Part shown: in pieces, positions 11,476 through 49,690 of the stretch
Position numbering within the stretch: the stretch's first letter is position 1
Layout: every line of letters starts with the position of its first letter
From: a virus
Length of the DNA stretch: 64,000 nt
Reading direction: 5' to 3' (one strand)
IMG/VR virus record: IMGVR_UViG_3300027852_001277
Position numbers and translations under genes: made by a program
The notes under the pieces: model-generated
Databases searched by the model: none
Seen by the model: only the letters and a program-made list of their open reading frames with translations
What the model was told of the DNA's origin: nothing

Positions 11476-12096
11476 ATGACAACAAATACAATAATAGCTG
11501 AAGATTTCGAGTCGTCATTTAAGGTAACTGGGACTTATATAGTAAGAAACGGAGTTTATGATGTTGAAGGCGACGTCCTTTTGATTAAGAAGGTGGAAAC
11601 TTTACCATTCAAGTTTGGTGTAGTTACTAGAAATTTTCGATGCAGTGACAACAACCTCGTATCTCTTGAAGGTGCCCCTGTTAAAGTAGGAGGAACTTTT
11701 GATTGTATGTTTAACAAGCTCGTCTCTCTTGAAGGTGCACCTAAAGAAGTAGGAGGAGGTTTTTGGTGCAGTGATAATAACCTAACTTCCCTTGAAGGTA
11801 CTCCTGTTAAAGTAGAAGGAGGTTTTGATTGTAGCTTTAATAAGCTTATCTCTGTTAAAGGTGCTCCCAAAGAAGTAGTAAGAACTTTTTGGTGTCACAA
11901 CAATGAGCTTGTATCTCTCAAAGGTGCACCTGTTAAAGTAGGAGGAAGTTTTGATTGTAGCTTTAATAAGCTCATCTCCCTTGAATATGCTCCTAAAGAA
12001 GTAGAAAGAGATTTTTGGTGTAATGATAATGTAAAATTGTTTATTAAGGAAGAAGTAGAAGCAGTATCTAATGTTGGGAGAAGCATTTATGTTTGA
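11476..12096 (+). CDS. LRR-solenoid protein #1 (6 x 21-aa units, N- and C-cap)
   Basis: 63-nt periodic units LxSLxGAPxxVGGxFxCxxNx; ATG at 11476 after AGGAGA. Confidence 0.9.
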   Translation: MTTNTIIAEDFESSFKVTGTYIVRNGVYDVEGDVLLIKKVETLPFKFGVVTRNFRCSDNNLVSLEGAPVKVGGTFDCMFNKLVSLEGAPKEVGGGFWCSDNNLTSLEGTPVKVEGGFDCSFNKLISVKGAPKEVVRTFWCHNNELVSLKGAPVKVGGSFDCSFNKLISLEYAPKEVERDFWCNDNVKLFIKEEVEAVSNVGRSIYV

Positions 12097-12143
12097 AGAC
12101 TAACTAGGAGAAGTTTAACGTCAGTAAAAAGGAGTCAAAGCTA

Positions 12144-12656
12144 ATGTTTAAAATTTTTGTTGATATGGATGGAGTGCTCACTGACTTTATGGGAGGTGTT
12201 CAAAAACTTTACAAGAAAAATCTGGATGTAAGAAAATTGATAGAGGAAGAAGAGGTCAAGCTTTGGGATGCTATTAATTCAGAGGGAATGGCATTCTGGT
12301 CCGGTCTTAGTTGGATGAGGGACGGAAAGAAGTTGTGGAATCACGTAAAAAAGTACAGACCAATCTTGTTGACAGCATTACCAGAAAAAAGTATATGTGA
12401 AAAAAGTGTGCATGTAGAAAAAGGTAAACTTGAATGGGTAAAAAGAGAACTTGGGGAAGTTGCTACTATTATGTGTAGGAGGGAAGAGAAGAAATGCTTT
12501 GCAGGTCCGTCTCATATTTTAATAGACGACGATTTTAGGAATATTAGAGAGTGGAAAGCGGAAAATGGTATAGCAATTTGGCATAACAATAGTAATACGA
12601 CCATTGTGGAACTGGAACTGGGGTTGATGGAACTAGAATTGAAGTTAATAAATTAA
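12144..12656 (+). CDS. 5'(3')-deoxyribonucleotidase, HAD family
   Basis: IFVDMDGVLTDF and LIDD motifs. Confidence 0.85.
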   Translation: MFKIFVDMDGVLTDFMGGVQKLYKKNLDVRKLIEEEEVKLWDAINSEGMAFWSGLSWMRDGKKLWNHVKKYRPILLTALPEKSICEKSVHVEKGKLEWVKRELGEVATIMCRREEKKCFAGPSHILIDDDFRNIREWKAENGIAIWHNNSNTTIVELELGLMELELKLIN

Positions 12657-12671
12657 AAATAAAGGAAAATT

Positions 12672-12830
12672 ATGAAAATTATAATCGCAAAATCAGATTT
12701 AGTTCCACTAAGGGAATTAATAGAGAAAGGGATGAGTTGTTACTCGCCAATTAATAGGGAGGAAACAAAAATGATAACTAAAGGTGCTAAGTTGCTTAAG
12801 AAAATTAATTGGTTTATAAGAAAAGGATAA
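12672..12830 (+). CDS. small protein, paralogue of 9811..10035
   Basis: MKIIIAKSDLVPLRELIEKGMSCYSPINREE. Confidence 0.55.
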   Translation: MKIIIAKSDLVPLRELIEKGMSCYSPINREETKMITKGAKLLKKINWFIRKG

Positions 12831-12854
12831 CAAATTAATAGGAGGTAATTGAAA

Positions 12855-13178
12855 ATGACGCCTAGAGAGAAATACCACAACGACAATCATTACTGTAAGT
12901 TGGTTGATATGATGGTTGCACATATAGAATCCTGTAATTACACACCATCAGAAATGAGAGAAGCGGCTATTTTAGCTTCCATTTTATATGAAGAACATCA
13001 TATGAGATCTTTTACTATAAATACTCCCTACCCTGTAGGTGTTATTTCTGCATTAAAAACTATTCATGAGTATGTTACAGATGAAACTTTAAGCAAGGAA
13101 AAGAATGTCGCCCAAAAGGAACTAAAATTTTCAGTTCAAAAGCTCGAAGAACCTTGTGTAGTAAAAGGGCGCGCCTAA
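12855..13178 (+). CDS. hypothetical protein
   Basis: ORF with GGAGG RBS; 3' end overlaps an LRR remnant. Confidence 0.6.
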   Translation: MTPREKYHNDNHYCKLVDMMVAHIESCNYTPSEMREAAILASILYEEHHMRSFTINTPYPVGVISALKTIHEYVTDETLSKEKNVAQKELKFSVQKLEEPCVVKGRA

Positions 13179-13299
13179 AGAAGTAGGATGGGATTTTTGG
13201 TGTGGTGGTAATCCAAAATCGTTTACTATAGAGGAAGTAAAAGCAGTATCTAGAGTTGGGAAAAATATTATACTTGAAATAGATAAATACAAAGTATGA
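13165..13299 (+). pseudogene. LRR remnant (partial unit plus C-cap, no start)
   Basis: KGAPKEVGWDFWCGGNPKSFTIEEVKAVSRVGKNII, immediately preceded in frame by TAA. Confidence 0.85.
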
Positions 13300-13334
13300 G
13301 TAAGTTTTATATAAATTAATAAAAGGAAAAGTGT

Positions 13335-13517
13335 ATGGATACAAAAGAGTTTTGGGGGACCAAGAAAAGATGGACTGGAGTAGATTGCACAAAGCAAGCT
13401 TTTATAGCTAGTAAACAAATGTTGGAAGAGCGAAAGACGCTGCTGGAAGCGCAAAAGAAAGGTGAGATTGACATTGAATGGTTGCAAGACAATGCTTTTA
13501 TCACTCCGAAGATATAG
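13335..13517 (+). CDS. hypothetical protein
   Basis: ORF with AAGGA RBS. Confidence 0.5.
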   Translation: MDTKEFWGTKKRWTGVDCTKQAFIASKQMLEERKTLLEAQKKGEIDIEWLQDNAFITPKI

Positions 13518-13533
13518 TAAATGGAGGAAAAGT

Positions 13534-13791
13534 ATGGAAAAGAATATGTTAAAGATTCTAAAAGACTTACAATCTGAAAATGAATATTTTCGTAGGCAAT
13601 TATCCGCCATAAATACTCCACAAAAACTTGCGAGATATTCATTGTTTTTTTGCTTTTTGGCTTTCTTGTCTTTAAGTTTTACAAAATTCTTGGGTATAGA
13701 CTTGTTACATCCAATCTTGGCTTACTTTGTTTTCGGGATAAGTACTGTCTTTTACCTGATGGCGTTTATTATGAAGAGACAAGGCAAATGA
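13534..13791 (+). CDS. small membrane protein
   Basis: ATG at 13534 after GGAGG; two hydrophobic helices. Confidence 0.55.
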   Translation: MEKNMLKILKDLQSENEYFRRQLSAINTPQKLARYSLFFCFLAFLSLSFTKFLGIDLLHPILAYFVFGISTVFYLMAFIMKRQGK

Positions 13792-13830
13792 ACAAAATTA
13801 TTTATTATCAGAACAAAAAAGGAAAAACTT

Positions 13831-14856: not shown

Positions 14857-14860
14857 CATA

Positions 14861-15610
14861 ATGACAACAATAGAATGCAGTAATGAAAATGATTTTGAAA
14901 GTTGCTTTAAGATAAAAGGGACTTACACAGTAAGAGACGGAGTTTATGATGTTGATGGTAATATCCTTCTGATTAAGAAGGTGGAAACTTTACCGTTTAA
15001 ATTTGGTATAGTTACTGGGAATTTTCTGTGTAACGACAACAAGCTCCGTTCTCTTGAAGGCGTTCCTACTAAAGTAGGAGGAAATTTTGATTGTTGTAGA
15101 AATAACCTAACTTCTTTAGAAGGTGTTCCTGTTAAAGTAGGGAAAAATTTTTGGTGTAACGATAACAAGCTTACCACCCTGAAAGGCGCCCCTGAAGAAA
15201 TAGAAGGAATTTTTAATTGTAGGTTTAACAAACTTACCTCTCTCGAAGGTGCTCCTGTCAAAATAGGAGAAGATTTTTTATGTATGTTTAATAACCTTCA
15301 CTCCCTTGAAGGTGCTCCTAAAGAAGTAGGAACAGGTTTTTGGTGTTGCTGTAACAACCTCACCTCCCTCAAAGGTGCTCCCCTTAAAGTAGGTGGAGAT
15401 TTTGATTGTGGTGATAATGAACTTGCCTCCCTTGAAGGTGCTCCTGAAGAAATAGGAGGAACTTTTTGGTGCAATAGAAACAAGCTTCGATCTCTTAAAG
15501 GTGCGCCTAAAGAAGTAGGAGGAGATTTTTTGTGTAACAATAATGAAAAATTGTTTACTATAGAGGAAGTAAAAGCAGTATCCAAAGTTGGAAAAGGGTA
15601 TTTATGTTGA
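14861..15610 (+). CDS. LRR-solenoid protein #2 (8 units)
   Basis: Same N-cap, 21-aa units and C-cap. Confidence 0.9.
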   Translation: MTTIECSNENDFESCFKIKGTYTVRDGVYDVDGNILLIKKVETLPFKFGIVTGNFLCNDNKLRSLEGVPTKVGGNFDCCRNNLTSLEGVPVKVGKNFWCNDNKLTTLKGAPEEIEGIFNCRFNKLTSLEGAPVKIGEDFLCMFNNLHSLEGAPKEVGTGFWCCCNNLTSLKGAPLKVGGDFDCGDNELASLEGAPEEIGGTFWCNRNKLRSLKGAPKEVGGDFLCNNNEKLFTIEEVKAVSKVGKGYLC

Positions 15611-15634
15611 AGACTAAATAGGAGAAATAACATA

Positions 15635-16426: not shown

Positions 16427-16448
16427 ATCCTTTCTACTAGAGGTTATT

Positions 16449-17215: not shown

Positions 17216-17228
17216 TATAACTTTCCTC

Positions 17229-20142: not shown

Positions 20143-21087
20143 TCAACAACACGTTTTCAACAATCCGTTTTGTCCTCCTATCATCAACATAGATACTGCT
20201 CTTATTTCTTCTATAGTAAACAACATTACATTATTGTCACACCGAAAACCTCTTCCTACTTTTTTAGGTGCACCTTTTAAAGAAATAAGTTTGTTAAACC
20301 TACAACAAAAATCTTCTCCTACTTTGATAGGAGCGCCTTTGAGGGAAGTTAGTTCGTTATTGTTACAATTAAAATCACCTCCTACTTCTTTAGGTGACCC
20401 TTCGAGAGATACAAGCTTGTTAAAGCTACAATCAAAGCTTTCTCCCACTTCTTTAGGAGCGCCTTCGAGGGAACGGATATTGTTGTCATTACACAAAAAA
20501 GTTCCTCCTACTTTTGTAGGGGCGCCTTCAATGGAGTGAAGTTCGTTAAACATACAATTAAAATCTCCTCCTACTTTTGTAGGGGCATTATCGAGAGATG
20601 TGAGCTTGTTTCCACTACAATCAAAATCACCTCTTGTTTCTTTGGGTGCACCTTTAAGGGAACGGATATTGTTGTCGTTGCACCAGAAATTTCCTTTTGT
20701 TTCTTTAGGAGCGCCTTCGAGAGAAACAAGCTTGTTTCTGCTGCACCAAAAATCACCTTTTGTTTCTTTAGGTGCCCCTTTGAGAGAGACGAGCTTGTTG
20801 TCATTACACAAAAAAGTTCCTCCTACTTTTGTAGGGGCGCCTTCGAGGGAGGTGAGGTTATTTCTATTACAATAAAAACCTCCACCTACTTCTTTAGGAG
20901 CACCTTTTAAAGAGGTGAGGTTATTTTTGACACACCAAAAAGTTCCAGTAACTATACCAAACTTGAAGGGGAAAGACTCCACGTTTCTAAGTAGAATGAC
21001 GTCACCATTGACGTCATAAATGTTATTTTTTACTGAATAAATTCCTATTATCTTAAAGTACGATTTAAAATCTTCAGCTATTGTCAT
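20143..21087 (-). CDS. LRR-solenoid protein #3 (11 units; C-cap diverges after RAVS)
   Basis: N-cap and repeats; tail runs into a low-complexity tract. Confidence 0.9.
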   Translation of the reverse strand: MTIAEDFKSYFKIIGIYSVKNNIYDVNGDVILLRNVESFPFKFGIVTGTFWCVKNNLTSLKGAPKEVGGGFYCNRNNLTSLEGAPTKVGGTFLCNDNKLVSLKGAPKETKGDFWCSRNKLVSLEGAPKETKGNFWCNDNNIRSLKGAPKETRGDFDCSGNKLTSLDNAPTKVGGDFNCMFNELHSIEGAPTKVGGTFLCNDNNIRSLEGAPKEVGESFDCSFNKLVSLEGSPKEVGGDFNCNNNELTSLKGAPIKVGEDFCCRFNKLISLKGAPKKVGRGFRCDNNVMLFTIEEIRAVSMLMIGGQNGLLKTCC

Positions 21088-27235: not shown

Positions 27236-27601
27236 CTATGATTTCACTTCTACCATATCCATCTCTCGAGCTAAAGCACGGCATGCATCAGCTTCGTCAC
27301 CTACCACATCAAACTTAAATTGTAGACCTCCTTGATCTGGCTTCGGAATCACTACGATTCCGCTACTCATTTGACGTGCTCTTAGCTCGCCAACCAGAAT
27401 ATGTAATCTCTCCAGATCTTTCTTCTCTTCCTTAGAAAAAAGATCTTCTAGGAAGGTCTCGAACGCATTTACCTTAGCTGTTCTATCTAAATGTGATTCA
27501 CCCTTGTGTGTTTTACAACACGTATATAGATTCCACTGCTTTATACACTCTTTCCATTTGTCTATGACTATTTCAGGTTTTTTTAACATTGTTTTCCTCA
27601 C
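27236..27601 (-). CDS. hypothetical protein sharing a C-terminal 60 aa with 27842..28198
   Basis: KKDLERLHILVGELRARQMSSG...EMDMVEV near-identical at DNA level. Confidence 0.6.
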   Translation of the reverse strand: MRKTMLKKPEIVIDKWKECIKQWNLYTCCKTHKGESHLDRTAKVNAFETFLEDLFSKEEKKDLERLHILVGELRARQMSSGIVVIPKPDQGGLQFKFDVVGDEADACRALAREMDMVEVKS

Positions 27602-27841
27602 TTTATGGTCTCACTGAATCCGTAAAATCGTCCGTCTCCAGCATTACACGATCGAAAGATACAATACCTTCCCAGAATCTCTGCTCTAGCATAGTCAACT
27701 ATCGCCTTTACATCTAACACCCAAACACATTAAGGAATTCTCACTACAAGCTTTTTTTGAGAACCAATGTATCTTCTATAAAACATATATCTGGTTCAGA
27801 CTCTGGTAAAATCTCTATTCCTGTACGGTAAAGTTCTATTT

Positions 27842-28198
27842 TCATTTTTTGTTTCCTCCCACTTCTACCATATCCATCTCTTGAGCTAAAGCACGGCATG
27901 CATCAGCCTCCTCACCTGCCACATCGAACTTGAATTGTAGACCTCCTTGATCTGGCTTCGGAATCACTACGATTCCGCTACTCATTTGACGTGCTCTTAG
28001 CTCGCCAACCAGAATATGTAATCTCTCCAGATCTTTCTTATCAATGTATTCCAATGTCATTTTATTTTCCCTTCTTTTAGAGTATGGGATTTGTTTTGTT
28101 ACTATCTCCTTCACTGTTTTGTGTTTAAAATTTATAATTAAAGAGATTGGAACTCTCCAATTTCTTGTCTTTTGCAAACTTACAGTAATCATGTTCAA
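27842..28198 (-). CDS. hypothetical protein sharing a C-terminus with 27236..27601
   Basis: As above; different N-terminus. Confidence 0.55.
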   Translation of the reverse strand: MNMITVSLQKTRNWRVPISLIINFKHKTVKEIVTKQIPYSKRRENKMTLEYIDKKDLERLHILVGELRARQMSSGIVVIPKPDQGGLQFKFDVAGEEADACRALAQEMDMVEVGGNKK

Positions 28199-28647
28199 TT
28201 ATTCTCCTTTTTTCTAAGGGGAAGTATTAACATTTCTTTTGCAACTACAATTGGTATACCTTGTTGGTAACCAGTTTGTACTATATTCCTGAACTTTACT
28301 GCTCTTTTTATTACATTAATATAGAATAATTCTAGCCTCTTAGCATCCTTTTCATGCACGTATATATGAAATCCAATTGTGTACTTCTTCCTTTTATGTG
28401 GGTAATAAAAACATGTTGTATTTTTAGTCGGGAAAGGTCTCAAATCATTTTCATGAATCCACTTCCCTATTGGAATTGGTTTACTTGGTATTATTTGTCC
28501 AAATAATTTTTTGTTCCTAAAGTTACTACCATGCGGTAGTTTGGAATATTTAAAAAGTTTAAATCCTATAAATGAGCCATCATTGGACTTAGTGTACTGG
28601 AAGTTCATTATTCGCTCTGATTTCGTGGCTGGTCTATCTAAGCACAT
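28195..28647 (-). CDS. hypothetical protein, tandem paralogue
   Basis: MCLDRPAT...GYQQGIPIVVAKEMLILPL. Confidence 0.65.
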   Translation of the reverse strand: MCLDRPATKSERIMNFQYTKSNDGSFIGFKLFKYSKLPHGSNFRNKKLFGQIIPSKPIPIGKWIHENDLRPFPTKNTTCFYYPHKRKKYTIGFHIYVHEKDAKRLELFYINVIKRAVKFRNIVQTGYQQGIPIVVAKEMLILPLRKKENN

Positions 28648-29099
28648 GATTTTTTCTCCTTTTTTCTAAGGGGAAGTATTAACATTTCTTTTGCAACTAC
28701 AATTGGTATACCTTGTTGGTAACCAGTCTGTACTATGTTCCTGAACTTTACCGTTCTCCTTACATTTCCATAAAAGGATCCTAGCATATTAATATCCTTT
28801 TCACGCACGTATATATGAAATCCTATTGTATACTGCTGCCTTTCGTAGTGGTAATAAAAACGTGTTGAATTCTTATTAGGGAAAGATCTCCAACCATTTT
28901 CATGAATCCACTTTCCAACTGGGAATGGTCCATTCTCCATTTTTTCTCCCAATAGTCTTTTGGTTTTGAAGTTACGACCACATGAAGAGCGTTTAGAATA
29001 TTTGAAAAATTTAAATCCTATGAAAGATCCATCGTTGGACTTAGTATATTGGAAGTTCCTTCTTCGCTCTACTTTCGTAGCTGCTCTTTCTAAGCACAT
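28638..29099 (-). CDS. hypothetical protein, tandem paralogue
   Basis: MCLERAAT...; tail of a third copy at ~29100-29190. Confidence 0.65.
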   Translation of the reverse strand: MCLERAATKVERRRNFQYTKSNDGSFIGFKFFKYSKRSSCGRNFKTKRLLGEKMENGPFPVGKWIHENGWRSFPNKNSTRFYYHYERQQYTIGFHIYVREKDINMLGSFYGNVRRTVKFRNIVQTGYQQGIPIVVAKEMLILPLRKKEKKSCA

Positions 29100-29220
29100 A
29101 GTATTCTCCTTATCTAAGGGAAGTATTAATATCTCTTTCGCAACTACCACTGGTAACCCTAATTGGTAACCAGTTTGGATTATGTTTCTTTCAGCTCTTC
29201 ATTGCCAAAAAGAAAAAAGA

Positions 29221-31328: not shown

Positions 31329-32243
31329 CTAACTTTTATTTTTTTCCTTCTCCAGAGTATCTTTTGCAATTTCCGTATCTCGCTTTACTTTAATAGGTGT
31401 ATCCTTAAGAGAAGTAAGTTTGTTATATTTACACCAAAAACTTCCCGCTACTTTTGTAAGAGTGCCTTTGATGAAGTGTAGATTGTCAAACCTACACCAA
31501 AAACTTTCTCCTACTTCTTTAGGAGCTCCTTCGAGGGAGTAAAGCTCGTTACTGCTGCACCAAAAATCTCCTCCTATTTCTTTAGGAGCGCCTTCAATGG
31601 AGTGGAGCTTGTTACCGTTACATTCAAAATTTCCTCCTACTTTAACAGGTGCACCTTCGAGAGAGGTGAGATCGTTATAGCTACACCAGAAATTTCCTCC
31701 TACTTCTTTAGGAGCTCCTTCGAGGGAGCAAAGCTCGTTACTGCTGCACCAAAAATCTCCTCCTACTTTTATAGGGGAACCCTTAAGAGAAGTAAGCTTA
31801 TTATAGCTGCACCAAAAACCTCCTACTATTTCTTTAGGTGCGTCTTTGAGAGAAACAAGCTTGTTGTTACTGCACCAAAAATCTCCTCCTACTTTTACAG
31901 GAGCACCTTTGAGAGAAGTAAGCTCGTTGTTACTATTACAATAAAAACTTCCTCCTACTTTAACAGGTGCATCCTTGAGAGAAGTAAGCTCGTTATCCCT
32001 ACAATCAAAATTTTCCCCTATTTTTGTAGGAGTGTTTTTTAGCGAAGTGAGTTTGTTTTTACTACAATCAAAACTTCCAGTAACTGTACCGAACTTAAAA
32101 GGGAGAGACTCCGTATTCCTAATAAGAAAGACGTTACCTTCTACATAATAAATGTTATCTTTTAATGTGTAAGTTCCATCTATCTGAAAGTATGATTCGA
32201 AATCATCTTCATTTTTACATTTTAGTTCATTAACTATTTGCAT
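31329..32243 (-). CDS. LRR-solenoid protein #4 (10 units plus partial, no canonical C-cap)
   Basis: N-cap and repeats. Confidence 0.9.
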   Translation of the reverse strand: MQIVNELKCKNEDDFESYFQIDGTYTLKDNIYYVEGNVFLIRNTESLPFKFGTVTGSFDCSKNKLTSLKNTPTKIGENFDCRDNELTSLKDAPVKVGGSFYCNSNNELTSLKGAPVKVGGDFWCSNNKLVSLKDAPKEIVGGFWCSYNKLTSLKGSPIKVGGDFWCSSNELCSLEGAPKEVGGNFWCSYNDLTSLEGAPVKVGGNFECNGNKLHSIEGAPKEIGGDFWCSSNELYSLEGAPKEVGESFWCRFDNLHFIKGTLTKVAGSFWCKYNKLTSLKDTPIKVKRDTEIAKDTLEKEKNKS

Positions 32244-32833: not shown

Positions 32834-33571
32834 CTACGCTATCTTATAGGAGCGTTTATTTTCTTGCTTCGTCAAGTTATTCCCATTACAATAAAAATTT
32901 CCCCCTACTTTAACAGGTGCACCTTCAAGAGAGGTGAGATTGTTATAGCTACACCAAAAATTTCCTCCTACTTCTTTAGGAGCACCTTTTAGGGAAACAA
33001 GGTTATTTCTATAACACCAAAAAGCTCTTCCTACTTTTATAGGAGCGCCTTCGAGGGAAGTAAGCTTATTAAACCTACAATCAAAACTTCCTCCTACTTC
33101 TTCAGGAGCGCCTTTCAGTGTGGTGATCTTGTTGTCGTCACACCAAAAACTTCCTCCTACTTCAACAGGTGAACCTTTAAGTGAGACGAGTTCATTTTCA
33201 CTACACCAAAAATGCCCCCCTACTTTTTTCGGAGCTCCTTCAAGAAAGGTAAGGCTATTTTCACTGCAATCAAAATCCCTTCCTACTTCTTTAGGAGCGC
33301 CCTCAAGGGAGATTAGGTTATTTTCACTGCAATCAAAATCTTTTCCTACTTTAACAGGTGCACCTTTAAGTGAGGTGAGCCTTTTGTTACTACAATCAAA
33401 ACTTCCAGTAACTGTACCGAACTTAAATGGGAAAGACTCTACTTTCCTGATGAGGAAGACGTTACCCTTAACATCATAAACTTCATCTCTTACTGAGTAA
33501 GTTCCCTCTACCTTGAAGTACGATTCGAAATCATCTTCGTTAGGCGTTATCTCCGGTTCATTTTCACGCAT
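32834..33571 (-). CDS. LRR-solenoid protein #5 (8 units, no canonical C-cap)
   Basis: N-cap and repeats. Confidence 0.9.
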   Translation of the reverse strand: MRENEPEITPNEDDFESYFKVEGTYSVRDEVYDVKGNVFLIRKVESFPFKFGTVTGSFDCSNKRLTSLKGAPVKVGKDFDCSENNLISLEGAPKEVGRDFDCSENSLTFLEGAPKKVGGHFWCSENELVSLKGSPVEVGGSFWCDDNKITTLKGAPEEVGGSFDCRFNKLTSLEGAPIKVGRAFWCYRNNLVSLKGAPKEVGGNFWCSYNNLTSLEGAPVKVGGNFYCNGNNLTKQENKRSYKIA

Positions 33572-33615: not shown

Positions 33616-34611
33616 TTATAAGTTTACCTTAAACTTTCGAGGAAATCTCTTTTTTACCTCTTCTATAGTAAACACTTTTTTATTACCAGTACAATCAAAA
33701 GTTCCCACTACTTCTTCAGGAGCACCTTCAAGGGAAGTTAGTTCGTTATAGCTACACCAAAAATTCCCCATTACTTCTTTAGGTGCATATTTTAGGGAAG
33801 TGAGCTTATTAAACCTACAATCAAAACTTCCTTCTATTTTAACAGGGGCGCCTTTCAGTGTTGTGAGCTTGTTGTCGTTACACCAAAAAGTTCCCCCTAC
33901 TTCTTCGGGAGCACCTTCAAGAGAGGTTAGTTCGTTTTCACTACACCAAAAAGTCCCACCTACTTTTTTAGTAGCGATTTCGAGCGAGATAAGGTTATTT
34001 CTGATACACCTAAAATCTCTTCCTACTTTAGCAGGTGCTCCTTTCAGAGAGGTGAGGTTATTTTCGCGACAATCAAAATCTCTTCCGACTTCTTCGGGAG
34101 CACCTTCAAGAGAAACAAGCTTATTTTCGTTACACCAAAAATCTTCTCCTACTTTTTCGGGAGCGCCTTCAAGGGAGATGAGGTTATTTTCGCTACAACC
34201 AAAATCTCTTCCTACTTCTTTAGGTGCGCCCTCAAGAGAGGTAAGGCTATTTTCACTGCAATCAAAATCTTTTCCTACTTTAGTAGGTGCTCCTTTCAGA
34301 GAGGTGAGGTTATTTTCGCGGCAATTAAAATCCCTTCCTACTTCCTTAGGGACGCCTATGAGGGATGTAAGGCTATTTTCACTGCAATCAAAATCTATTC
34401 CTACTTTAACAGGTGCGCCTTTAAGTGAGGTGAGCCCTTTGTTACTACAATCAAAAGTTCCCGTAACTATACCAAACTTAAAAGGGAGAGACTCCATATT
34501 CCTAAGAAGAAGGACGCCACCTTCTACATCATAAACGTTATCTTTTACTGTGTAAGTTCCCTCTATCTTGAAATACGATTCGAAAGTTCCTTGATTATTA
34601 ACTTCTTTCAT
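33616..34611 (-). CDS. LRR-solenoid protein #6 (12 units)
   Basis: N-cap, repeats, KVFTIEEV. Confidence 0.9.
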   Translation of the reverse strand: MKEVNNQGTFESYFKIEGTYTVKDNVYDVEGGVLLLRNMESLPFKFGIVTGTFDCSNKGLTSLKGAPVKVGIDFDCSENSLTSLIGVPKEVGRDFNCRENNLTSLKGAPTKVGKDFDCSENSLTSLEGAPKEVGRDFGCSENNLISLEGAPEKVGEDFWCNENKLVSLEGAPEEVGRDFDCRENNLTSLKGAPAKVGRDFRCIRNNLISLEIATKKVGGTFWCSENELTSLEGAPEEVGGTFWCNDNKLTTLKGAPVKIEGSFDCRFNKLTSLKYAPKEVMGNFWCSYNELTSLEGAPEEVVGTFDCTGNKKVFTIEEVKKRFPRKFKVNL

Positions 34612-34698: not shown

Positions 34699-35388
34699 CT
34701 AAACTTTCGAGGAAATCTCTTTTCTTACTTCTTCTATAGTAAACACTTTTTTATTACCAGTACAATTAAAAACTCCTCCTACTTCTTTAGGAGCGCCTTT
34801 AAGAGAGCGTAGCTTGTTTCTATTGCAATAAAAAGTTTCTCCTACTTTTACAGGCGCACCTTTGAGAGAGCGGAGCTTGTTATGGCTACAATCAAAATCT
34901 CCTCCTACTTCTGTAGGAGCGCCTTCGAGAGAGCGGAGCTTGTTATTTCTACTACACCAAAAAGTTTTTCCTATTTTTACAGGTGCACCTTTGAGAGAGC
35001 GGAGCTTGTTAAACCTACAATCAAAGCTTCCTTTCTCTTCTTTAGGAGCGCCTTTAAGAGAGATAAGTCTATTTTTGCTGCAATCAAAATCTCCTCCTAC
35101 TTTTACAGGTGCACCTTCAAGAGATGTAAGCTTGTTATCGTTACATAAAAAATCTCCTCCTACTTCTTTAGGAGCGCCTTCGAGAGAAGTAAGGCTATTC
35201 CCATCACACCGAAAATCCATAGTAACCGTACCAAATTTAAAGAGAAGGGTTTTAACCTTCTTCTTAAGAATGATGTCACCATCGACATCATAAACTCCGT
35301 CTCTTACTTTATAAGTTCCTTTTATTTCGAAATACTTTTCGAAATTATCTTCGGTAGGCAATGCCTTTAATTTACTTTTACATTCCAT
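34699..35388 (-). CDS. LRR-solenoid protein #7 (7 units)
   Basis: N-cap, repeats, KVFTIEEV. Confidence 0.9.
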   Translation of the reverse strand: MECKSKLKALPTEDNFEKYFEIKGTYKVRDGVYDVDGDIILKKKVKTLLFKFGTVTMDFRCDGNSLTSLEGAPKEVGGDFLCNDNKLTSLEGAPVKVGGDFDCSKNRLISLKGAPKEEKGSFDCRFNKLRSLKGAPVKIGKTFWCSRNNKLRSLEGAPTEVGGDFDCSHNKLRSLKGAPVKVGETFYCNRNKLRSLKGAPKEVGGVFNCTGNKKVFTIEEVRKEISSKV

Positions 35389-36981: not shown

Positions 36982-37432
36982 TCAAACATAAATACTTTTT
37001 TCAACTCTGGATACTGCTTCTACTTCCTCTATAGTAAACAACTTTTTATTATTGTTACACCAAAAATCTTCTCCTACTTTTTTAGGAGCACCTTCAAGAG
37101 ATGTGAGGTTATTGAACCTACAACCAAAGTTTCTTCCTACTTCTATAGGAGCGCCTTCTAGCGAGGTGAGCTCGTTACCATCGCACCCAAAATCTTCTCC
37201 TACTTCTTTAGGTGCCCATTTCAGAGAGGTGAGGTTATTTTTACTGCAATCAAAAGTTCCCGTAACTATACCAAACCTAAAAGGCAAAGTTTCCATTTTT
37301 AATTAGTGTTACATTACCATTGACGTCATAAACTTCGTCTCTTACTGTATAAGTTCCGTCTACTTCGAAGTAGAGTTTGAAATCATCTTCGGCTGTCTTT
37401 AGTTTACTAGGCTCATCTTTTTTGGTATTCAT
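36982..37432 (-). pseudogene. LRR-solenoid gene #8, frameshifted in the N-cap (3 units plus C-cap)
   Basis: ORFs 37277..37468 and 36982..37296 join at an A5 run (37296-37300). Confidence 0.85.
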
Positions 37433-37490
37433 TTTAAACCTTCTCTTTAAGTTTAACATTGTAGACATATCTGGATAGTCATTGCCTTTC

Positions 37491-38355: not shown

Positions 38356-38862
38356 TTATTTTAATGCTTTTATTCTTTTAATGAGATCAGATGTAGAAAC
38401 ACCTTTCACTAAAGGAACCTGTAAAACTTTTCCTCCCTCACTTTCCACCACTTCCTGACCAATCACTGTTCCGCTGACCCAATCTGCTCCTTTTACTAGA
38501 AGATGAGGTTTAATAGCGACTATGAGTGTTAATGGATCTGGTTCGTCGAAAAGGATCACATAATCAACATCCGTAATAGCAGTGAGCATTTCTGCTCTCT
38601 GACCCTCAGGGATAATAGGTCTATTCTGTCCCTTAATAGATCGCACTGAATTATCGCTGTTTATGGCTACTATTAGTATATCACCATTTCTTTTTGCTTC
38701 TCGGAAAGACTGAATGTGTCCCACATGGAGAATATCAAAGCAGCCATTTGTAAAGACAATTTTTTCCCCATTTTCTTTCAACTCTTCGACTACTGAGATA
38801 AGCTCTGTTCGTAACTTAATTTTTGTAGCTGCCAATGATTTTCCCTCACTAATTTGGTTCAA
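38356..38862 (-). CDS. rfaE2: D-glycero-beta-D-manno-heptose 1-phosphate adenylyltransferase (RfaE/HldE domain II)
   Basis: VFTNGCFDILHVGH, AINSD, KGQNRPI, LVKGADW, STSDLI. Confidence 0.9.
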   Translation of the reverse strand: MNQISEGKSLAATKIKLRTELISVVEELKENGEKIVFTNGCFDILHVGHIQSFREAKRNGDILIVAINSDNSVRSIKGQNRPIIPEGQRAEMLTAITDVDYVILFDEPDPLTLIVAIKPHLLVKGADWVSGTVIGQEVVESEGGKVLQVPLVKGVSTSDLIKRIKALK

Positions 38863-39158: not shown

Positions 39159-40091
39159 CTACCATTTAACATAAATACTTTTTCCAACTTTAGATATTGC
39201 TCTTATTTCCTCTATAGTAAACAATGTTACATTGCCATTACATCGAAAACCTCCTCCTACTTCTTTAGGAGCACCTTTCAAAGATGTAAGCTTATTGAAC
39301 CTGCAATAAAAGTTTCCTCCTACTTTGATGGGGGCATATTCAAGAGAGATGAGCTTGTTATTATTGCAATCAAAATCTCTTCCTACTTTAATAGGAGCAC
39401 CTTTAAGAGAAGTGAGTTCGTTGTCCCTACACCAAAAATCCTCACTTACTTCAATAGGTGCGCATTCAAGAGAAATGAGCTTATTTCCACTACAATCAAA
39501 ATTTCCTTCTACTTTTTTAGGCGCGCCTTTCAGAGAAAGGAGCTTGTTATCACTACAATCAAAATCTTCTCCTACTTCTACAGAAGCACCTTTGAGAGAG
39601 TGGAGCTTGTTGTTACTACAGTCAAAAGTTACTCCTACTTCTTTAGGAGCACCTTCTAGAGAGGTAAGTTCGTTTCTGCTACACCAAAAACTCCCACCTA
39701 CTTTTGTAGGAGCACCTTCTAAAGAGGTGAGCTTATTATAACCACACCAAAAATTTCCTCCTACTTCTTTAGGTGCGCCTTTGAGAGAAACAAGCTTGTT
39801 GTCGTTACACCAAAGAAATCCTCCTACTTTAACAGGAGCTCCTATGAGAGATGTGAGCTTGTTTTTGCTACACCAAAAATTTCCTCCTACTTCTTCCGGA
39901 GCGCCTTCAAGAGAGGTAAGTTTATTTTCGGAGCACCAAAAATTCCCAGTAACTACACCAAACCTAAATGGTAAAGTTTCCACTTTCTTAAGTAGAGTTA
40001 TGTCGCCATTTATGTTATAAATTTTATTTTTTACTATGTAAGTTCCGTTTATCCGGAAGTACGATTCGAAACCATCTTCAGCTGTTGTCAT
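39159..40091 (-). CDS. LRR-solenoid protein #9 (11 units)
   Basis: N-cap, repeats, C-cap. Confidence 0.9.
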   Translation of the reverse strand: MTTAEDGFESYFRINGTYIVKNKIYNINGDITLLKKVETLPFRFGVVTGNFWCSENKLTSLEGAPEEVGGNFWCSKNKLTSLIGAPVKVGGFLWCNDNKLVSLKGAPKEVGGNFWCGYNKLTSLEGAPTKVGGSFWCSRNELTSLEGAPKEVGVTFDCSNNKLHSLKGASVEVGEDFDCSDNKLLSLKGAPKKVEGNFDCSGNKLISLECAPIEVSEDFWCRDNELTSLKGAPIKVGRDFDCNNNKLISLEYAPIKVGGNFYCRFNKLTSLKGAPKEVGGGFRCNGNVTLFTIEEIRAISKVGKSIYVKW

Positions 40092-40153: not shown

Positions 40154-40708
40154 CTATTTAGTAAACAATTTAATATTATCACCGCAATCAAAATCTCTTC
40201 CTACTTTTTTAGGTGCACCTTTAAGAGTGACGAGTTTGTTTCCACTACACCAAAAACCTCTTCCTACTTCTTTGGGTGCACCTTTAAGTGAAGTGAGGTT
40301 GTTATTGTGACACCAAAAATCACCTTTTATTCTAGTGGGGGACCCTTTAAGAGATATAAGCTTGTTGTTACTACATTCAAAAGCTCTTCCTACTTTAGTA
40401 GGTGCACCTTCGAGAGAGGTAAGTTTGTTGTTACCACAATAAAAAGCTCCTTCTACTTTAATAGGTGCACCTTTCAAGGTAGTGAGCTTGTTGTTACAGC
40501 AATAAAAACCTCCTCCTACTTCTTTAGGTGCGCCTTTAAGAGAAGTAAGCTCCATGCTACCGCAATTAAAAGCTCCTGTAATTACACTAAACCTAAATGG
40601 TAAGGTTCCGACTTTCTTAATCAATATTACATCACCATCGACGTAATACATTTTATTTTTTATCTCATAAGTTCCGTATATTTTAAAATATTCTTCTAAT
40701 TCTATCAT
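40154..40708 (-). CDS. LRR-solenoid protein #10 (6 units; amber stop inside the C-cap)
   Basis: TAG at 40154-40156 followed in frame by EVEAVTRVGKNIYTRR to 40103. Confidence 0.85.
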   Translation of the reverse strand: MIELEEYFKIYGTYEIKNKMYYVDGDVILIKKVGTLPFRFSVITGAFNCGSMELTSLKGAPKEVGGGFYCCNNKLTTLKGAPIKVEGAFYCGNNKLTSLEGAPTKVGRAFECSNNKLISLKGSPTRIKGDFWCHNNNLTSLKGAPKEVGRGFWCSGNKLVTLKGAPKKVGRDFDCGDNIKLFTK

Positions 40709-40750
40709 TATATTATCTCCTTTTTGAACAACTGATAGGTGCACTGGGAT

Positions 40751-42149: not shown

Positions 42150-42988
42150 CTAATATCCAATGAAATCAATAGGATACTCTTTTACTTTACGACATTTTTT
42201 TGCTCGCAGCTTCATGGGATACTGATGCTGACTCTGGAAGCAAACACAATCATTAATATTAGCAGAAACTTTAAAAAGTTTCGCTTGTTTTTTGGTCACA
42301 AAAAAAAACGCGCCGCCGATGGGGAGTTAGCCAAGTGCAGCCCTGCTCCACATTCTTCTTTATATTTATTATCCCAATCAGGACAGACTATTTCTTTATT
42401 AGAATCATAATTGATTGTTCCAGAATAAAAATCAGTTCCATTTGTATTTGTGCATTTCCATAATTGTATTCTATTATTTTTAATTTTTATCCCTTTTAGT
42501 GCGCACCAATCTATAATGTTGTTAGGATAGATTGGTGTAATAATTGTGGACTTAGCATTCTTTTTATATGTAGAATACATTGAATTGATATAAGCAATAC
42601 TAAAATCCAAAAGCTCGGCATGGCTGTTTCCCCAAAGCTCGGCATGGCTGTTTTCCCAAAGCTCGGCATGACTACCTCCACGAAGAACGGCATGACTACC
42701 TCCACGAAGAACGGCATGGCTACTTTCCCTAAGCACGGCATGGCTCTTTCCATGAAGCTCAGCACGGCTATTTCCATGAAGCTCAGCATGGCTATTTCCC
42801 CAAAGATCGACATGGCTATTTTCCCAAAGCATGACACGGCTGTTTTCCCAAAGCACAGCATGGCTGTTCCCACAAAGCACGGCATTGCTGTTTCCATAAA
42901 GCACTGCATTGCTGTTTCTACAAAGCACGGCATTGCTTTTTCTATGAAGCACGACACAAAATCCAATAATTTCAAATTTTTTGTTCAC
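42150..42988 (-). CDS. 8-aa-repeat solenoid protein (14 x SHAxLxxN) with DUF7666-like C-domain, split by a T9 frameshift
   Basis: 24-nt repeats; CPDWD...ECGAGLHL; a T10 run extends the ORF from 42296 to 42150. Confidence 0.75.
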
Positions 42989-44199: not shown

Positions 44200-45135
44200 T
44201 TAGCCTTTTAAAGCTTTTTCGAATATAGCCTTAGGAACAGTAGATGTATCAGGTTGAGTCACAACATAACGAGAGCATTCGTTGGCAATCTTTGCTGCTT
44301 CGCTAAGATTCATTCCCATTCCGATACAAATTGCAATTACCGACGTGACTGTATCCCCAGCACCACTAACATTATAAACTTCCACAGGGGATTGAGGGAT
44401 ATAATAAATTTCTTCGAGATTTTCTCCGTGATAGATCTGCATTCCATCCTTCCCTAAAGTTTTTACAATATAGTTCGCGTAATTCGGATAAGGTTGAGCA
44501 GACTCGAGTTCTTTGCTGTTTGGTGTTACTATAAGAGTATTCTTGTAACGAACCCGAGAATACAAAGAAAAGTGTTCAGGTGCGGGGTCTATAATAATAG
44601 GCACGTTCATGTTGCTAATAATGGTCATCAATTGTTCCGACACGACTCCTTTTGCGTAATCAGATACCACTATTATATCTATAGATTCGTATTTCAACTT
44701 AGTACACTCTTCGCAAAGTGCATTAGTAGTATTGACGGGTACATACTTTAACTCTTTATCTATTCTTATCATTTGCATTAATCTATACTCGGCCACTATC
44801 CTCGTCTTTTGTGTTGTAACGATTTCTTTTGATTGTATGATATGGCTATCAGCAAGTATTTTTTCTTGGTTATCAACAAGTATTTTATTCAGTTTTTGGA
44901 TTATAGAAAGGCCAGCTTCATCTTCCCCCACTATACCTAAATATATTACATTGGGACCAAGCTCTCGGATATTACTAACTACATTCCCTGCTCCACCTAA
45001 TTTAGAATACTCTCTGTTTGCTAGAAGTATCGGAACAGGGGCTTCTGGGGAAATCCGTTCAACGCTGCCTACTATATATTTATCAAGCATTATATCGCCA
45101 ACTACTAGAATATTCACATCTTTAATATTTTTCAT
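44200..45135 (-). CDS. rfaE1: D-glycero-beta-D-manno-heptose 7-phosphate kinase (RfaE/HldE domain I, PfkB family)
   Basis: VVGDIMLDKY, RISPEAPVP, GGAGNV, SDYAKG, TPNSKE, SGAGDT. Confidence 0.9.
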   Translation of the reverse strand: MKNIKDVNILVVGDIMLDKYIVGSVERISPEAPVPILLANREYSKLGGAGNVVSNIRELGPNVIYLGIVGEDEAGLSIIQKLNKILVDNQEKILADSHIIQSKEIVTTQKTRIVAEYRLMQMIRIDKELKYVPVNTTNALCEECTKLKYESIDIIVVSDYAKGVVSEQLMTIISNMNVPIIIDPAPEHFSLYSRVRYKNTLIVTPNSKELESAQPYPNYANYIVKTLGKDGMQIYHGENLEEIYYIPQSPVEVYNVSGAGDTVTSVIAICIGMGMNLSEAAKIANECSRYVVTQPDTSTVPKAIFEKALKG

Positions 45136-45180
45136 GACCTTCCTCCTTTTGCTCCCATAGCTTATACAAAAATTTCTGTA

Positions 45181-45795: not shown

Positions 45796-45838
45796 AATAC
45801 ACTCCTTTCGAAACTAAACAGCTGTAGTAAAAAACTAT

Positions 45839-46060: not shown

Positions 46061-46196
46061 AATGTATACCTATTCCCTTCTCCCTCCTTCCTAAAACTGG
46101 AATTCTTTTTAACCTAACACAAGCTAACCTATAGCCACCTAGAGAATTTTTGCTAACCAAACTGATTCTCTCTATTTTCAGTAAATTGGATTTAAG

Positions 46197-46814: not shown

Positions 46815-46906
46815 TAGCTACCTCCTTCTCTATTAGGTTTATTAACATTACAGTACCAATTTGAATTTATCCCCTTATTTATTAAGGGGAGCCGTAAAAT
46901 CGAAAA

Positions 46907-46979
46907 TGAGTCGCACAGGGATCGAACCTGTGACCACCTGATTAAAAGTCAGATGCTCTACCAACTGAGCTAGCGACTC
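46907..46979 (-). tRNA. trnK: tRNA-Lys (UUU), no encoded CCA
   Basis: GAGTCGC acceptor stem, AGCTCAGTTGGTAGAGC D arm, CTGAC-TTTTAAT-CAG region with TTT anticodon, GGTTCGATCC T arm. Confidence 0.95.
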
Positions 46980-46994
46980 ATTTTATAACGTCTT

Positions 46995-47675
46995 TCACCC
47001 AAGTAGTTCCTTCCAGTGAGACTTTGGACGATACCTTGGGGAACCTGCTTTACAGAGAGGGCATTTGTCCGGTTCGGCTGTCCAGATCTCTTTTTCGATC
47101 AAAGTTATTATTTTATAGTCTGTATAGTCAGTACGCTTATGTGGTCTATGGACAATAGTTCCAATAATTGGCAAAAAATTTACTGGTTCGGAGTTGCCTT
47201 CTTCTATAGCCCTCCTAACCTCTTTGAATGTTTCACTGGTAGTAATAAGTTCCTCTACCTGAAGAACTGTAGCCTCAGCTGGAATAGTCATCCTTCTCCA
47301 CACCATTTTTTTGATTCCAGATGGGTCTTTCTCTGTAAAAGCATGTATAGCATTTAATTTCTTAGCGACCTCGTAAGAGAGTGTAATAGCAGCATAGGAA
47401 GATCCGATCACCCAATCTACATTCCTTATTCCGTTGACACTTAATTTCCATACTAGTTCCTGAGCAAGTTTCTCGCAAAATTGAGGATATTTGAGAACTT
47501 CAGGACAATTAAAATAGCCATTACTACATAAACCAGAATGTAATTCAGCATGAGGCTTATTCGTATAACCATCATGAATCCAGACAGCATTGCAGCTGCT
47601 AAATAAATCAAGAATATCTTTCTCTATTAATAAACTTTTAGAATTCATAATTATTTTCCTCTTTTTATAGTCCAT
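46995..47675 (-). CDS. pyrE: orotate phosphoribosyltransferase (divergent)
   Basis: HAELHSGLCSNGYF, VLQVEELITT PRPP-loop variant, C-terminal CPLC; adjacent to pyrF. Confidence 0.7.
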   Translation of the reverse strand: MDYKKRKIIMNSKSLLIEKDILDLFSSCNAVWIHDGYTNKPHAELHSGLCSNGYFNCPEVLKYPQFCEKLAQELVWKLSVNGIRNVDWVIGSSYAAITLSYEVAKKLNAIHAFTEKDPSGIKKMVWRRMTIPAEATVLQVEELITTSETFKEVRRAIEEGNSEPVNFLPIIGTIVHRPHKRTDYTDYKIITLIEKEIWTAEPDKCPLCKAGSPRYRPKSHWKELLG

Positions 47676-47725
47676 AAATTATGTATTTAATCTAATAATG
47701 ATATTTTCATCTATCGTTTACATGT

Positions 47726-48421
47726 TTATCTATGATGACTTCGCTGCTCAATTTCTTCCAATGTCCTTTCTATAGCATCAATCTGATATTTGGCTTTTGT
47801 AATAGGACGCCCTATGACAAGATAAGTTGATCCAAACCCAATTGCCTCAGCTGGCGTAGCAGTTCTCTTTTGATCGTCGCCAGCGTCTTGAAACCATCTG
47901 GGACGAATCCCAGGTGTGACTTTAATAAGGTTTTTAAAATTCTTATATAGGCTTAACTCTTGAGCAGAACATACAATCCCATACACAGCAGCCCGAGAAG
48001 CATCCTGTACAAATTCCAGAACTTTTGTACTAACAGACGTATGAAAAATGTTGTTTGCATCGTGGTCACTAAGAGATGTTAGAACAGTTACAGCCAAGAT
48101 TTTACTTTCCCCTGCTACAGCTATTGCTCTGGTCATCATTTCTATACCTCCTGAAGCATGAACTGTTATCAGGTCTGGCTTTGCTCTGACAATTTTTTTA
48201 ATTCGATTTTCCACAGTTTGCGGAATATCGTGAAATTTACAGTCGGCAAAGACTTTTCCATATTTCTTCAATTCTTTAATTATGGCAATACTTCCTACAT
48301 CCGCATCTAGGAGGTCGTTGACTTTAAAACCCCAGACTTTCCCGGATAGTTTTTCTGCCATTTCAAAAGCTTCCGTCCTCTCCATCCCATCTAAAGCAAT
48401 TATGATCGGATTTTTTTCCAT
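47726..48421 (-). CDS. pyrF: orotidine 5'-phosphate decarboxylase
   Basis: IIALD, DCKFHDIP, TVHASGG, AVTVLTS, TPGIRP, QKR, VIGRPIT. Confidence 0.92.
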   Translation of the reverse strand: MEKNPIIIALDGMERTEAFEMAEKLSGKVWGFKVNDLLDADVGSIAIIKELKKYGKVFADCKFHDIPQTVENRIKKIVRAKPDLITVHASGGIEMMTRAIAVAGESKILAVTVLTSLSDHDANNIFHTSVSTKVLEFVQDASRAAVYGIVCSAQELSLYKNFKNLIKVTPGIRPRWFQDAGDDQKRTATPAEAIGFGSTYLVIGRPITKAKYQIDAIERTLEEIEQRSHHR

Positions 48422-48503
48422 TTACCACCCTCCAATTCTTTGTTGAAGTAAACTGTATAAAATATTACAAATTGAATTTCTATGTTACAGCACGCAGAAA
48501 TTT

Positions 48504-48803
48504 TCATGACCCAACAATCTTTCCACAATGACTACACTTCCAAACAATCTTGTACATGTCTCCGTAGCCTTTATACTCGTTACATCCCGGATTTTTTATA
48601 ACAATAACTGGGCTTAAAATTGGTAAGAGTTTTGCTCCTATTTTACATGTGCAGTCAGTCGGTGTAGGCATCGTGATGTTGTGCTTATGGATTATTTTGT
48701 TAAACATTTTCCCCCCAAAGCTTCGATAATTTTTATCATTTAGGCACTTTGCGCAGACTTCAATCCTCGGATCTGTAGGCTCTTCCCTGCAGATGGTACA
48801 CAA
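48504..48803 (-). CDS. Cys-rich hypothetical protein
   Basis: Several CxxC pairs. Confidence 0.55.
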   Translation of the reverse strand: MCTICREEPTDPRIEVCAKCLNDKNYRSFGGKMFNKIIHKHNITMPTPTDCTCKIGAKLLPILSPVIVIKNPGCNEYKGYGDMYKIVWKCSHCGKIVGS

Positions 48804-48817
48804 TTTACAACAATCGT

Positions 48818-49690
48818 TTAACCCGTAATTAAAATCTCTCCTGCTCTAACATAGGAACCATTTAGAAAAGTGAGCTTGTTTTTACCACACCAAAAACCTC
48901 TTCCTACTTTTATAGGAGCGCCTTCGAATGAGATGAGGTTGTTATTGTCGCACCAAAAATCTCCTCCTACTTCTTTAGGCGCACCTTCGAGGGAGACGAG
49001 CTTGTTGTTAATACAACCAAAATTACCTTTTACTTTAACAGGAGCACCTTTGAGGAAGTGGAGCTTGTTATAACCACACCAAAAACTTCCTCCTACTTCT
49101 TTAGGAGCGCCTTTGAGGGAGGTTAGTTCATTGTCACCGCACCCAAAATCTCCTCTTACTTCTTTAGGAGCACCTTCAAGGGAAGTTAGTTTATTATCGT
49201 TACAATCAAAATCTCCCCCTACTTTTGTAGGAGCGTCTTTAAGGGAATGGAGATTATTACCATCACACCAAAAGCCTCTTCCTACTTCTTCGGGAGCGCC
49301 TTTGAGAGATACAAGCTTGTTTCTAGTACAATCAAAACCACCTTCTACTTTTACAGGTGCACCTTCAAGAGAAGTGAGGTTGTTTTCGCTACACCAAAAA
49401 TCTCCTCCTACTTTCATAGGAGCACCTTTGAGAGAGGTGAGTTTATTTTCCCCACACCAAAAATCTCCCACTACTTCTTCCGGAGCGCCTTTAAGAGAGG
49501 TAAGGTTATTTTCACTGCAATTAAAATTTCCAGTGACTACACCAAACTTGAACGGCAGAGACTCTACTTTCCTAAGAAGAAGGACGTCGCCTTTGACGTC
49601 GTAAACTTTATCTCTTATTGTGTAAGTCCCTTTTACTTCGAAGTACGATTCGAAGTTATCTTCGATAGGCGCTACTTCATTTTTATACAT
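48818..49690 (-). CDS. LRR-solenoid protein #11 (10 units plus partial)
   Basis: N-cap and repeats; sits between pyrF and pyrD. Confidence 0.9.
   Translation of the reverse strand: MYKNEVAPIEDNFESYFEVKGTYTIRDKVYDVKGDVLLLRKVESLPFKFGVVTGNFNCSENNLTSLKGAPEEVVGDFWCGENKLTSLKGAPMKVGGDFWCSENNLTSLEGAPVKVEGGFDCTRNKLVSLKGAPEEVGRGFWCDGNNLHSLKDAPTKVGGDFDCNDNKLTSLEGAPKEVRGDFGCGDNELTSLKGAPKEVGGSFWCGYNKLHFLKGAPVKVKGNFGCINNKLVSLEGAPKEVGGDFWCDNNNLISFEGAPIKVGRGFWCGKNKLTFLNGSYVRAGEILITG

Follow-up and report, generated by a model that had tools for sequence, protein, structure and literature searches.

InlJ of Listeria monocytogenes is a secreted bacterial surface protein, anchored to the cell wall, which carries further domains beside its leucine-rich repeats (LRRs). 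YopM, delivered by a type III system, is an LRR-only binding scaffold that works inside the target cell, and the related IpaH proteins bind their substrates on the concave face of the solenoid. InlJ has the known 21-residue LRR with a cysteine ladder, as a passage of PMC9525666 citing Bublitz et al. 2008 describes it. In the giant virus CroV, LRR proteins of the FNIP/FGxxFN type have expanded to about 70 genes of unknown function, for which the binding of host factors has been proposed (PMC9525666). Here we describe a family of twelve LRR proteins in a stretch of 64,000 nucleotides (the window) from the IMG/VR virus record IMGVR_UViG_3300027852_001277. The fold, the InlJ-type repeat class, the rule that strand positions of LRRs vary and the LRR-only expansions of giant viruses are all known already. 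Variable concave residues are ordinary for LRRs, and the interest of this family lies in its phage setting, in the size of an unannotated family and in the episodic selection seen among its relatives.

The twelve members are dispersed over 11.4-51.4 kb of the window, and comprise ten intact genes, one frameshifted gene and one fragment. The intact paralogs encode LRR-only proteins of 196-331 amino acids (aa), each consisting of an N-terminal cap, 6-12 tandem units of 21 residues (63 nt) and a short C-terminal tail. The N-terminal segment is conserved over about 50 residues (...DFESYFKIxGTYTVRDxVYDVxGDVxLIKKVETLPFKFG...); the tail carries the motif ...KLFTIEEVxAVSKVGK..., and the proteins stop 20-30 residues past the last repeat. 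A first-pass annotation of this DNA had placed the family at 11476-49690; it is located there, and it runs on to a fragment at 51182-51409. The members are the following:

g01, 11476-12096, plus strand: cap and 6 units; the open reading frame (ORF) opens with TTG at 11428, and the ATG at 11476 is the likely start
g02, 14861-15610, plus strand: cap and 8 units
g03, 20143-21087, minus strand: cap and 11 units; a 50-nt exact tract is common to units 2 and 7
g04, 31329-32243, minus strand: cap and 10 units, one of them of 22 residues; 7 Trp at predicted concave positions
g05, 32834-33571, minus strand: cap and 8 units
g06, 33616-34611, minus strand: cap and 12 units; 331 aa; the protein chosen for modelling
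g07, 34699-35388, minus strand: cap and 7 units, one of them of 22 residues
g08, 36982-37468, minus strand: cap and 3 units in two overlapping frames, the N-cap at 37277-37468 and the repeats at 36982-37296; either a frameshifted pseudogene or a sequencing or assembly error
g09, 39159-40091, minus strand: cap and 11 units
g10, 40154-40744, minus strand: degenerate cap and 6 units
g11, 48818-49690, minus strand: cap and 10 units; lies between a putative PyrF-like gene and a PyrD-like gene that matches DHO_dh
g12, 51182-51409, minus strand: C-terminal fragment with 2 units and the C-cap

Apart from the two 22-residue units in g04 and g07, the unit length is exactly 21 residues, and Tandem Repeats Finder reports periods of 126 and 189 nt in addition to 63 nt. 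We parsed 94 canonical 21-residue units from the twelve genes, and all counts per unit given below refer to this set. The unit consensus is LTSLxGAPxxVGGxFxCxxNx. Its framework is nearly invariant: L1 is found in 91 units, S3 in 86, L4 in 88, G6 in 83, A7 in 84, P8 in 91, V11 in 81, F15 in 93, C17 in all 94 and N20 in 93, and each element of the core F15-x-C17-x-x-N20-x-L1 is kept in 97-100% of units. Shannon entropy peaks at positions 14 (2.52 bits), 16 (2.37 bits), 18 (2.80 bits) and 19 (3.10 bits), followed by positions 9 (2.26 bits), 2 (2.14 bits) and 21 (2.02 bits). With ten positions at 0.8 bits or less and four above 2.3 bits over 94 units, the pattern cannot be due to chance. The four most variable positions form 82 distinct four-residue signatures among the 94 units. 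The first-pass annotation had named L1, L4, G6, P8, V11, F15, C17 and N20 as nearly invariant, which the counts (81-94 of 94 units each) bear out, and the residue sets it listed for positions 14, 16, 18 and 19 were recovered almost exactly, with F occurring at position 14 as well. It had also counted position 21 among the peaks of variability and had passed over positions 2 and 9, which vary as much as position 21; the true peak comprises four positions, not five.

Residue choice at the variable positions is limited. Position 14 takes mostly D, N, G, T or S, and position 16 is bimodal, with W in 39 and D in 26 units (69% of units together). Over the variable positions the composition is D 23%, N 15%, S 12%, W 10%, G 10% and R 7%. 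The earlier description of these positions as aromatic and charged holds, with a marked skew: acidic residues make up 26% and basic residues 8%. The most acidic paralog is g06, which has 20 D/E and 5 K/R at its variable positions.

None of the Pfam LRR repeat models scores above its cut-off on these proteins (LRR_4 reaches 11.2 bits, the cut-off being 27). The LRRNT cap model passes its whole-protein cut-off in one paralog (34.8 vs 25.8 bits), with no single stretch passing. Current Pfam LRR profiles thus miss this repeat type. Of the solved structures, Listeria InlJ (3bz5_A, phmmer E 8.2e-15 over 240 residues) matches best in sequence, with residues 73-313 of g06 aligned to residues 46-288 of the structure; the second is the LRR of IpaH7.8. 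In the HMMER alignments F15, C17 and N20 stand in register with the LxC/VxxN core of both proteins. We modelled g06 with AlphaFold2, using an alignment of the window paralogs and 22 homologs. The model has a mean predicted local distance difference test score (pLDDT) of 94.3 and a predicted template-modelling score (pTM) of 0.89; it contains a helix and a beta-hairpin in the N-cap, a C-terminal helix and, in each unit, one short strand at positions 10-11 and another at positions 14-16. Foldseek matched the model in the PDB to YopM (4ow2, E 8e-7), SspH2 (3g06, TMq 0.60), SspH1, LRR proteins of Leptospira, SDS22, IpaH and InlJ, the last confirming the sequence match at the level of the fold. Every Foldseek match listed is an LRR protein, and 17 reach an E value of 0.001 or better. 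The family belongs to the LRR superfamily and to its InlJ-type cysteine-ladder class, given the 21-residue period and the cysteine at position 17 in 94 of 94 units.

In canonical LRR numbering, F15, C17 and N20 correspond to positions 4, 6 and 9, and the variable positions 14, 16, 18 and 19 to the x positions 3, 5, 7 and 8. In LRRs generally these x positions are exposed, on the inner strand or in the loop that follows it, and the residue that follows the asparagine ladder, here position 21, belongs to the flank and not to the concave strand. Repeat register, DSSP assignment of the model and homology support a predicted placement of positions 14 and 16 on the concave strand and of positions 18-19 at the strand edge or in the exit loop. 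The concave placement proposed in the first-pass annotation is accordingly retained for positions 14, 16, 18 and 19, on the strength of the HMMER register, the modelled strands and the Foldseek matches to LRR solenoids, and dropped for position 21.

The repeat shares with InlJ the 21-residue period, the replacement of the second core leucine of LxxLxLxxN by cysteine, and the asparagine ladder. It differs in the loop half of the unit (SLxGAPxxVGG), and the proteins differ in being short, LRR-only, phage-borne and present as twelve paralogs. Internalins are marked by a signal peptide, an internalin N-cap, an inter-repeat region and a cell-wall anchor, and the window paralogs do not fit that family: their N-termini are hydrophilic, and no further Pfam domain was found beside or after the repeats, nor any anchoring or fibre domain. 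The top structural matches, the LRRs of YopM, IpaH, SspH and SlrP, have repeats of 20-22 residues. Those type III effectors are set apart by their LPX motif, their cysteine-free Leu/Val core, a bacterial rather than a phage setting and only weak sequence similarity (E 0.004); the NEL ligase domain of the IpaH/SspH type is lacking from the LRR-only window paralogs. Like CroV, the window has a large paralogous LRR-only family of a big double-stranded DNA virus, with variability on or beside the concave face; the CroV repeat, in contrast, has 22 residues, an FGxxFN spine with two phenylalanines and a repositioned asparagine, and belongs to a virus of a eukaryotic host (PMC9525666). No sequence relation between the window repeat and that of CroV was seen, the consensus of the 21-residue unit differing from FNIP/FGxxFN. 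A functional analogy can be drawn to ribonuclease inhibitor and to the variable lymphocyte receptors (VLRs) of lampreys, where specificity lies in the x positions of the strand and in the adjoining loop, although repeat classes and lengths differ. An acidic groove rich in aromatic residues suits basic partners. VLRs gain their diversity somatically, through the copying of cassettes; that of the window proteins is germline and old.

Two regularities were observed in the repeats apart from the variable positions. Positions 9 and 10 co-vary strongly, as KE or as V/T/I-K (mutual information z = 16). In 62 of 82 neighbouring unit pairs (p < 0.0005) one unit has E and the other K at position 10, which makes a two-unit super-repeat. 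The 126-nt super-period arises because the unit types defined by positions 9-10 alternate. This alternation lies off the concave strand and probably reflects a pattern of charge from one repeat to the next. Synonymous codon choice is tied to the position within the repeat: V11 is encoded by GTA in 78 of 81 cases and G12 and G13 mostly by GGA, unlike G6, which is encoded by GGT or GGC in 74 of 83. With these codons, GTAGGAGGA recurs every 63 nt, for example at 33679-34434 on the minus strand, and resembles a Shine-Dalgarno sequence. In the other genes of the window GTA and GTT are used equally, and in homologs from other phages V11 is encoded by GTT in 47 of 47 cases. The codon bias at V11 points to homogenisation within the genome or to selection at the nucleotide level.

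The window paralogs have diverged far from one another. Mean nucleotide identity between units is 69% (95% for the best pair), full-length paralogs align at 70-76% identity in blastn, and the proportion of synonymous differences (pS) between N-caps averages 0.54. The concave positions mismatch between paralogs at a frequency of 0.78-0.81 in every pairing of units, the random expectation being about 0.80. Between paralogs the four positions are fully randomised and each paralog has its own surface; the divergence is ancient. The site-wise proportion of non-synonymous differences (pN) at positions 14, 16, 18 and 19 is 0.46-0.62, about equal to the saturated pS, and synonymous differences depend strongly on the position in the unit. 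We rejected recent gene conversion between the window paralogs, as blastn returned the 70-76% matches only and no long identical modules. Exact shared tracts longer than expected by chance at 69% identity do occur, of 50 nt inside g03 and of 36-41 nt elsewhere, and these point to occasional duplication or conversion of units. Close relatives of the window phage were sought with two other genes: the PyrF-like query had no match in viral contigs, and an RfaE-II-like query recovered from metagenome contigs only sequences of another lineage at 59% identity or less.

Homologs of the family were collected with g11 as the query, and divergence by site class was measured in 27 independent pairs that share 60-90% identity. 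Positions 14, 16, 18 and 19 differ in 65-71% of comparisons, positions 9, 10, 13 and 21 in 42-51%, the framework in less than 12% and the parts outside the LRR array in 22%. The ratio of non-synonymous to synonymous divergence (omega) was then estimated by site class with the Nei-Gojobori method from the DNA of ten homologs, which form five independent pairs from other phages; for the concave sites the synonymous divergence of the LRR framework served as the reference. Framework omega is 0.04-0.12 in all five pairs. Concave omega reaches 2.28 in P0006/P0073 (Fisher p 0.009) and 1.98 in P0052/P0116 (Fisher p 0.03; p 7e-6 against all synonymous sites). It is 1.16 in P0026/P0039, which is not significant, 0.65 in P0088/P0109, and 0 in P0001/P0016, where none of 36 concave codons has changed and the N-terminal domain differs at 21% of residues. 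Four of the ten are true orthologs, encoded at a single phage locus that is flanked by SbcCD-like and helicase genes. The concave surfaces are conserved in some lineages and outpace synonymous sites in others.

These data bear on an alternative reading, namely that the exposed residues of the solenoid are unconstrained and the paralogs are redundant scaffolds or structural proteins that vary without specificity. Such relaxed constraint would account for a pattern that is generic to LRRs, for the near equality of pN and saturated pS at the variable sites of the window, for an omega of about 1 at saturating distance and for values of 1.2 or less in three of the five close pairs; it is, however, at odds with an omega of about 2 in two independent pairs, with the strongly biased composition (including 10% tryptophan) and with the retention of ten intact, diverged paralogs. 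Because no concave codon has changed in P0001/P0016 despite the divergence of the N-terminal domain, the concave residues are under selection and not neutral. We regard relaxed constraint alone as unlikely. The pattern over the five pairs indicates episodic diversification together with conversion of repeat blocks, and not steady hypervariation.

Block copying was seen in the alleles P0052 and P0116 (L082:82-1551 and L083:9138-10607). Over the first 275 codons they encode the same residues, with 9 synonymous differences. In the LRR part 34 codon differences are non-synonymous and 22 synonymous; they fall in clusters by unit, and two or three bases of a codon are often changed. Codons 359-392 of P0052, a block of two units, match codons 275-308 of P0116 at 99 of 102 nt and their own allelic place at only 79 of 102 nt, a copy of two repeats placed four repeats downstream. 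This indicates that repeat-block copying adds to point change. Since omega tends to 1.0 at saturating distance, conversion from random donors alone would not yield an omega of 2.

The block copied within a gene of a relative, the exact tracts of 36-50 nt between repeats and the focus of diversity on the predicted binding face are what would be expected if a diversity-generating retroelement, or a somatic assembly of cassettes as in lamprey VLRs, rewrote the concave codons. We consider such programmed hypervariation essentially excluded: no reverse transcriptase was matched among the 30 non-LRR window ORFs scanned against Pfam, identity between units and between paralogs is low, the codon changes between close relatives affect every one of the four bases, not adenines alone, and often alter two or three bases of a codon, and all copies are described as complete genes.

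We favour, with moderate confidence, the reading that the family is a germline set of LRR-only binders, which act by stoichiometric binding of different, probably host, partners in the infected cell. F15, the cysteine ladder of C17 and the asparagine ladder of N20 would build the core, and L1, S3, L4, G6, A7, P8 and V11 would fix the rest of the coil. Positions 14 and 16, on the inner strand, and 18-19, in the exit loop, would then line the concave face with side chains that are free to vary, giving each protein its own acidic predicted groove studded with Trp and Tyr. Such a groove would suit basic partners. The proteins may bind host proteins inside the infected cell, either for takeover or for blocking defence, in the manner of the LRR-only YopM or of ribonuclease inhibitor. 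In the relatives, new surfaces arise through point substitution and through within-gene copying of blocks of one or two repeats; selection promotes them in some cases (omega about 2), and in others they are conserved. A role in the cytoplasm would fit the LRR-only make-up of the paralogs, their hydrophilic N-termini and their position among metabolic and accessory genes. The groove as the binding site, the identity of the bound molecules and the cytoplasmic action are what we infer from these features. The diversified paratope proposed in the first-pass annotation survives as a variable pattern on the predicted binding face, the paratope itself being an extrapolation from that pattern.

Several points weigh against a set of specific binders. 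Variable x positions are generic to every LRR family, and the pattern alone is no proof of a diversified binding site; given the restricted alphabets, part of it may be structural. The concave assignment derives from register and homology, with exposure as predicted. In the window, where synonymous sites are close to saturation and the searches recovered no close relatives, selection is unreadable; among the five pairs from other phages a non-synonymous excess at concave sites was found in two, with three showing none. The window proteins fall in two PHROGs families, 7816 and 21719, both of unknown function, and no ligand or phenotype is known for any family member.

The window has a G+C content of 28-39% and is densely coding. 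It encodes an ATP-dependent DNA ligase, the nearest relatives of which are ligases of SPO1-like Bacillus phages. In a Pfam scan we identified genes of nucleotide metabolism (thymidylate-synthase-like, dCMP deaminase, NT5C-type nucleotidase, thymidylate kinase and the PyrD-like protein), and two further ORFs are read as PyrE- and PyrF-like from their translations alone, the PyrE-like one having no Pfam match on the scan. Other genes encode a PfkB kinase, a cytidylyltransferase, an Amidase_3 protein, an SLT transglycosylase domain, a DUF551 protein and one tRNA-Lys. Among the 30 scanned ORFs none matched a virion-protein family. We take the window to be an accessory and metabolic part of a large phage-like genome of low G+C.

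This setting bears on a further alternative, in which the LRR proteins are virion or surface adhesins that decorate the particle or aid binding to receptors or mucus, and diversify with host range. The similarity to internalins fits this idea, InlJ itself being a surface adhesin, as does a highly variable, weakly LRR-like ORF in the tail module of a Vibrio phage (PMC10945359). We nevertheless judge adhesins improbable: the window copies lie among nucleotide-metabolism and small accessory genes, with structural-protein families matched by 0 of 30 scanned ORFs, the LRR-only proteins of 196-331 aa have no domain for anchoring or for a fibre, and the orthologs in other phages adjoin SbcCD-like and helicase genes.

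The family extends well beyond the window. A family search recovered more than 7,900 database proteins at E ≤ 0.001, and among the matches listed nearly all are unnamed or 'hypothetical', many of them on contigs of 100-340 kb. Relatives in multiple copies were located by tblastn at 9 places in cultured Vibrio phages and at 17 in 735-kb uncultured phages, where they are annotated as hypothetical. In the examined records the family is found in phage genomes, often in many copies, and escapes the LRR repeat models of Pfam. Longer homologs combine the LRR array with further domains, of which a PcfJ-like domain (PF14284; for example in P0129, P0153 and P0211) is the commonest, and C-terminal fusion of the 21-residue array to this domain is frequent. 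The PcfJ-like domain is known from conjugative plasmids and has no assigned function. In relatives of 489 aa the LRR array is fused to an N-terminal domain of about 260 residues, which we modelled with AlphaFold2 (pLDDT 70); Foldseek found nothing better than E 0.38 for it in the PDB, and the Pfam scan found no domain in the N-terminal parts of three other fused relatives, P0066, P0068 and P0001. The fusions suggest that the LRR array is a portable targeting module, which is one reason for favouring binders of host molecules.

A broader proposal can be made tentatively. Large phages might carry an inherited repertoire of LRR binders, a set of innate-immune receptors in reverse, in which each paralog neutralises or recruits a host protein of its own, such as a basic defence enzyme that binds nucleic acids. 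Block conversion would make the specificities, and positive selection would fix them while the hosts change; in other mobile elements, where it is fused to PcfJ-like or other domains, the same module would serve for portable targeting. If the copies are indeed specific binders of host proteins, they would represent a new class of phage takeover or anti-defence factor, and engineered binders could be built on their natural, small cysteine-ladder scaffold. A testable picture emerges from the orthologs, with surfaces kept in some lineages and rapidly replaced in others.

Some features of the window are separate from the LRR family. A cytidylyltransferase-like gene (38356-38862, minus strand) and a PfkB-type kinase gene (44200-45135, minus strand) lie 5 kb apart with LRR genes in between, and resemble the two halves of the heptose-activating enzyme RfaE. 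A second repeat protein, unrelated to the LRR family, is encoded by the ORF at 42296-42988 on the minus strand, most of which consists of 14.5 copies of a 24-nt (8-residue) repeat, roughly (G/E)NSHA(V/E)L(W/R/H); its only Pfam match is a faint one to an antifreeze beta-roll. Two adjacent paralogous genes at 28195-29150 and 27236-28198, both on the minus strand, represent a 452-nt tandem duplication with 81% identity. Just upstream of this gene pair, two ORFs share a near-identical C-terminal stretch of about 60 residues (...DLERLHILVGELRARQMSSGIVVIPKPDQGGLQFKFDV...).

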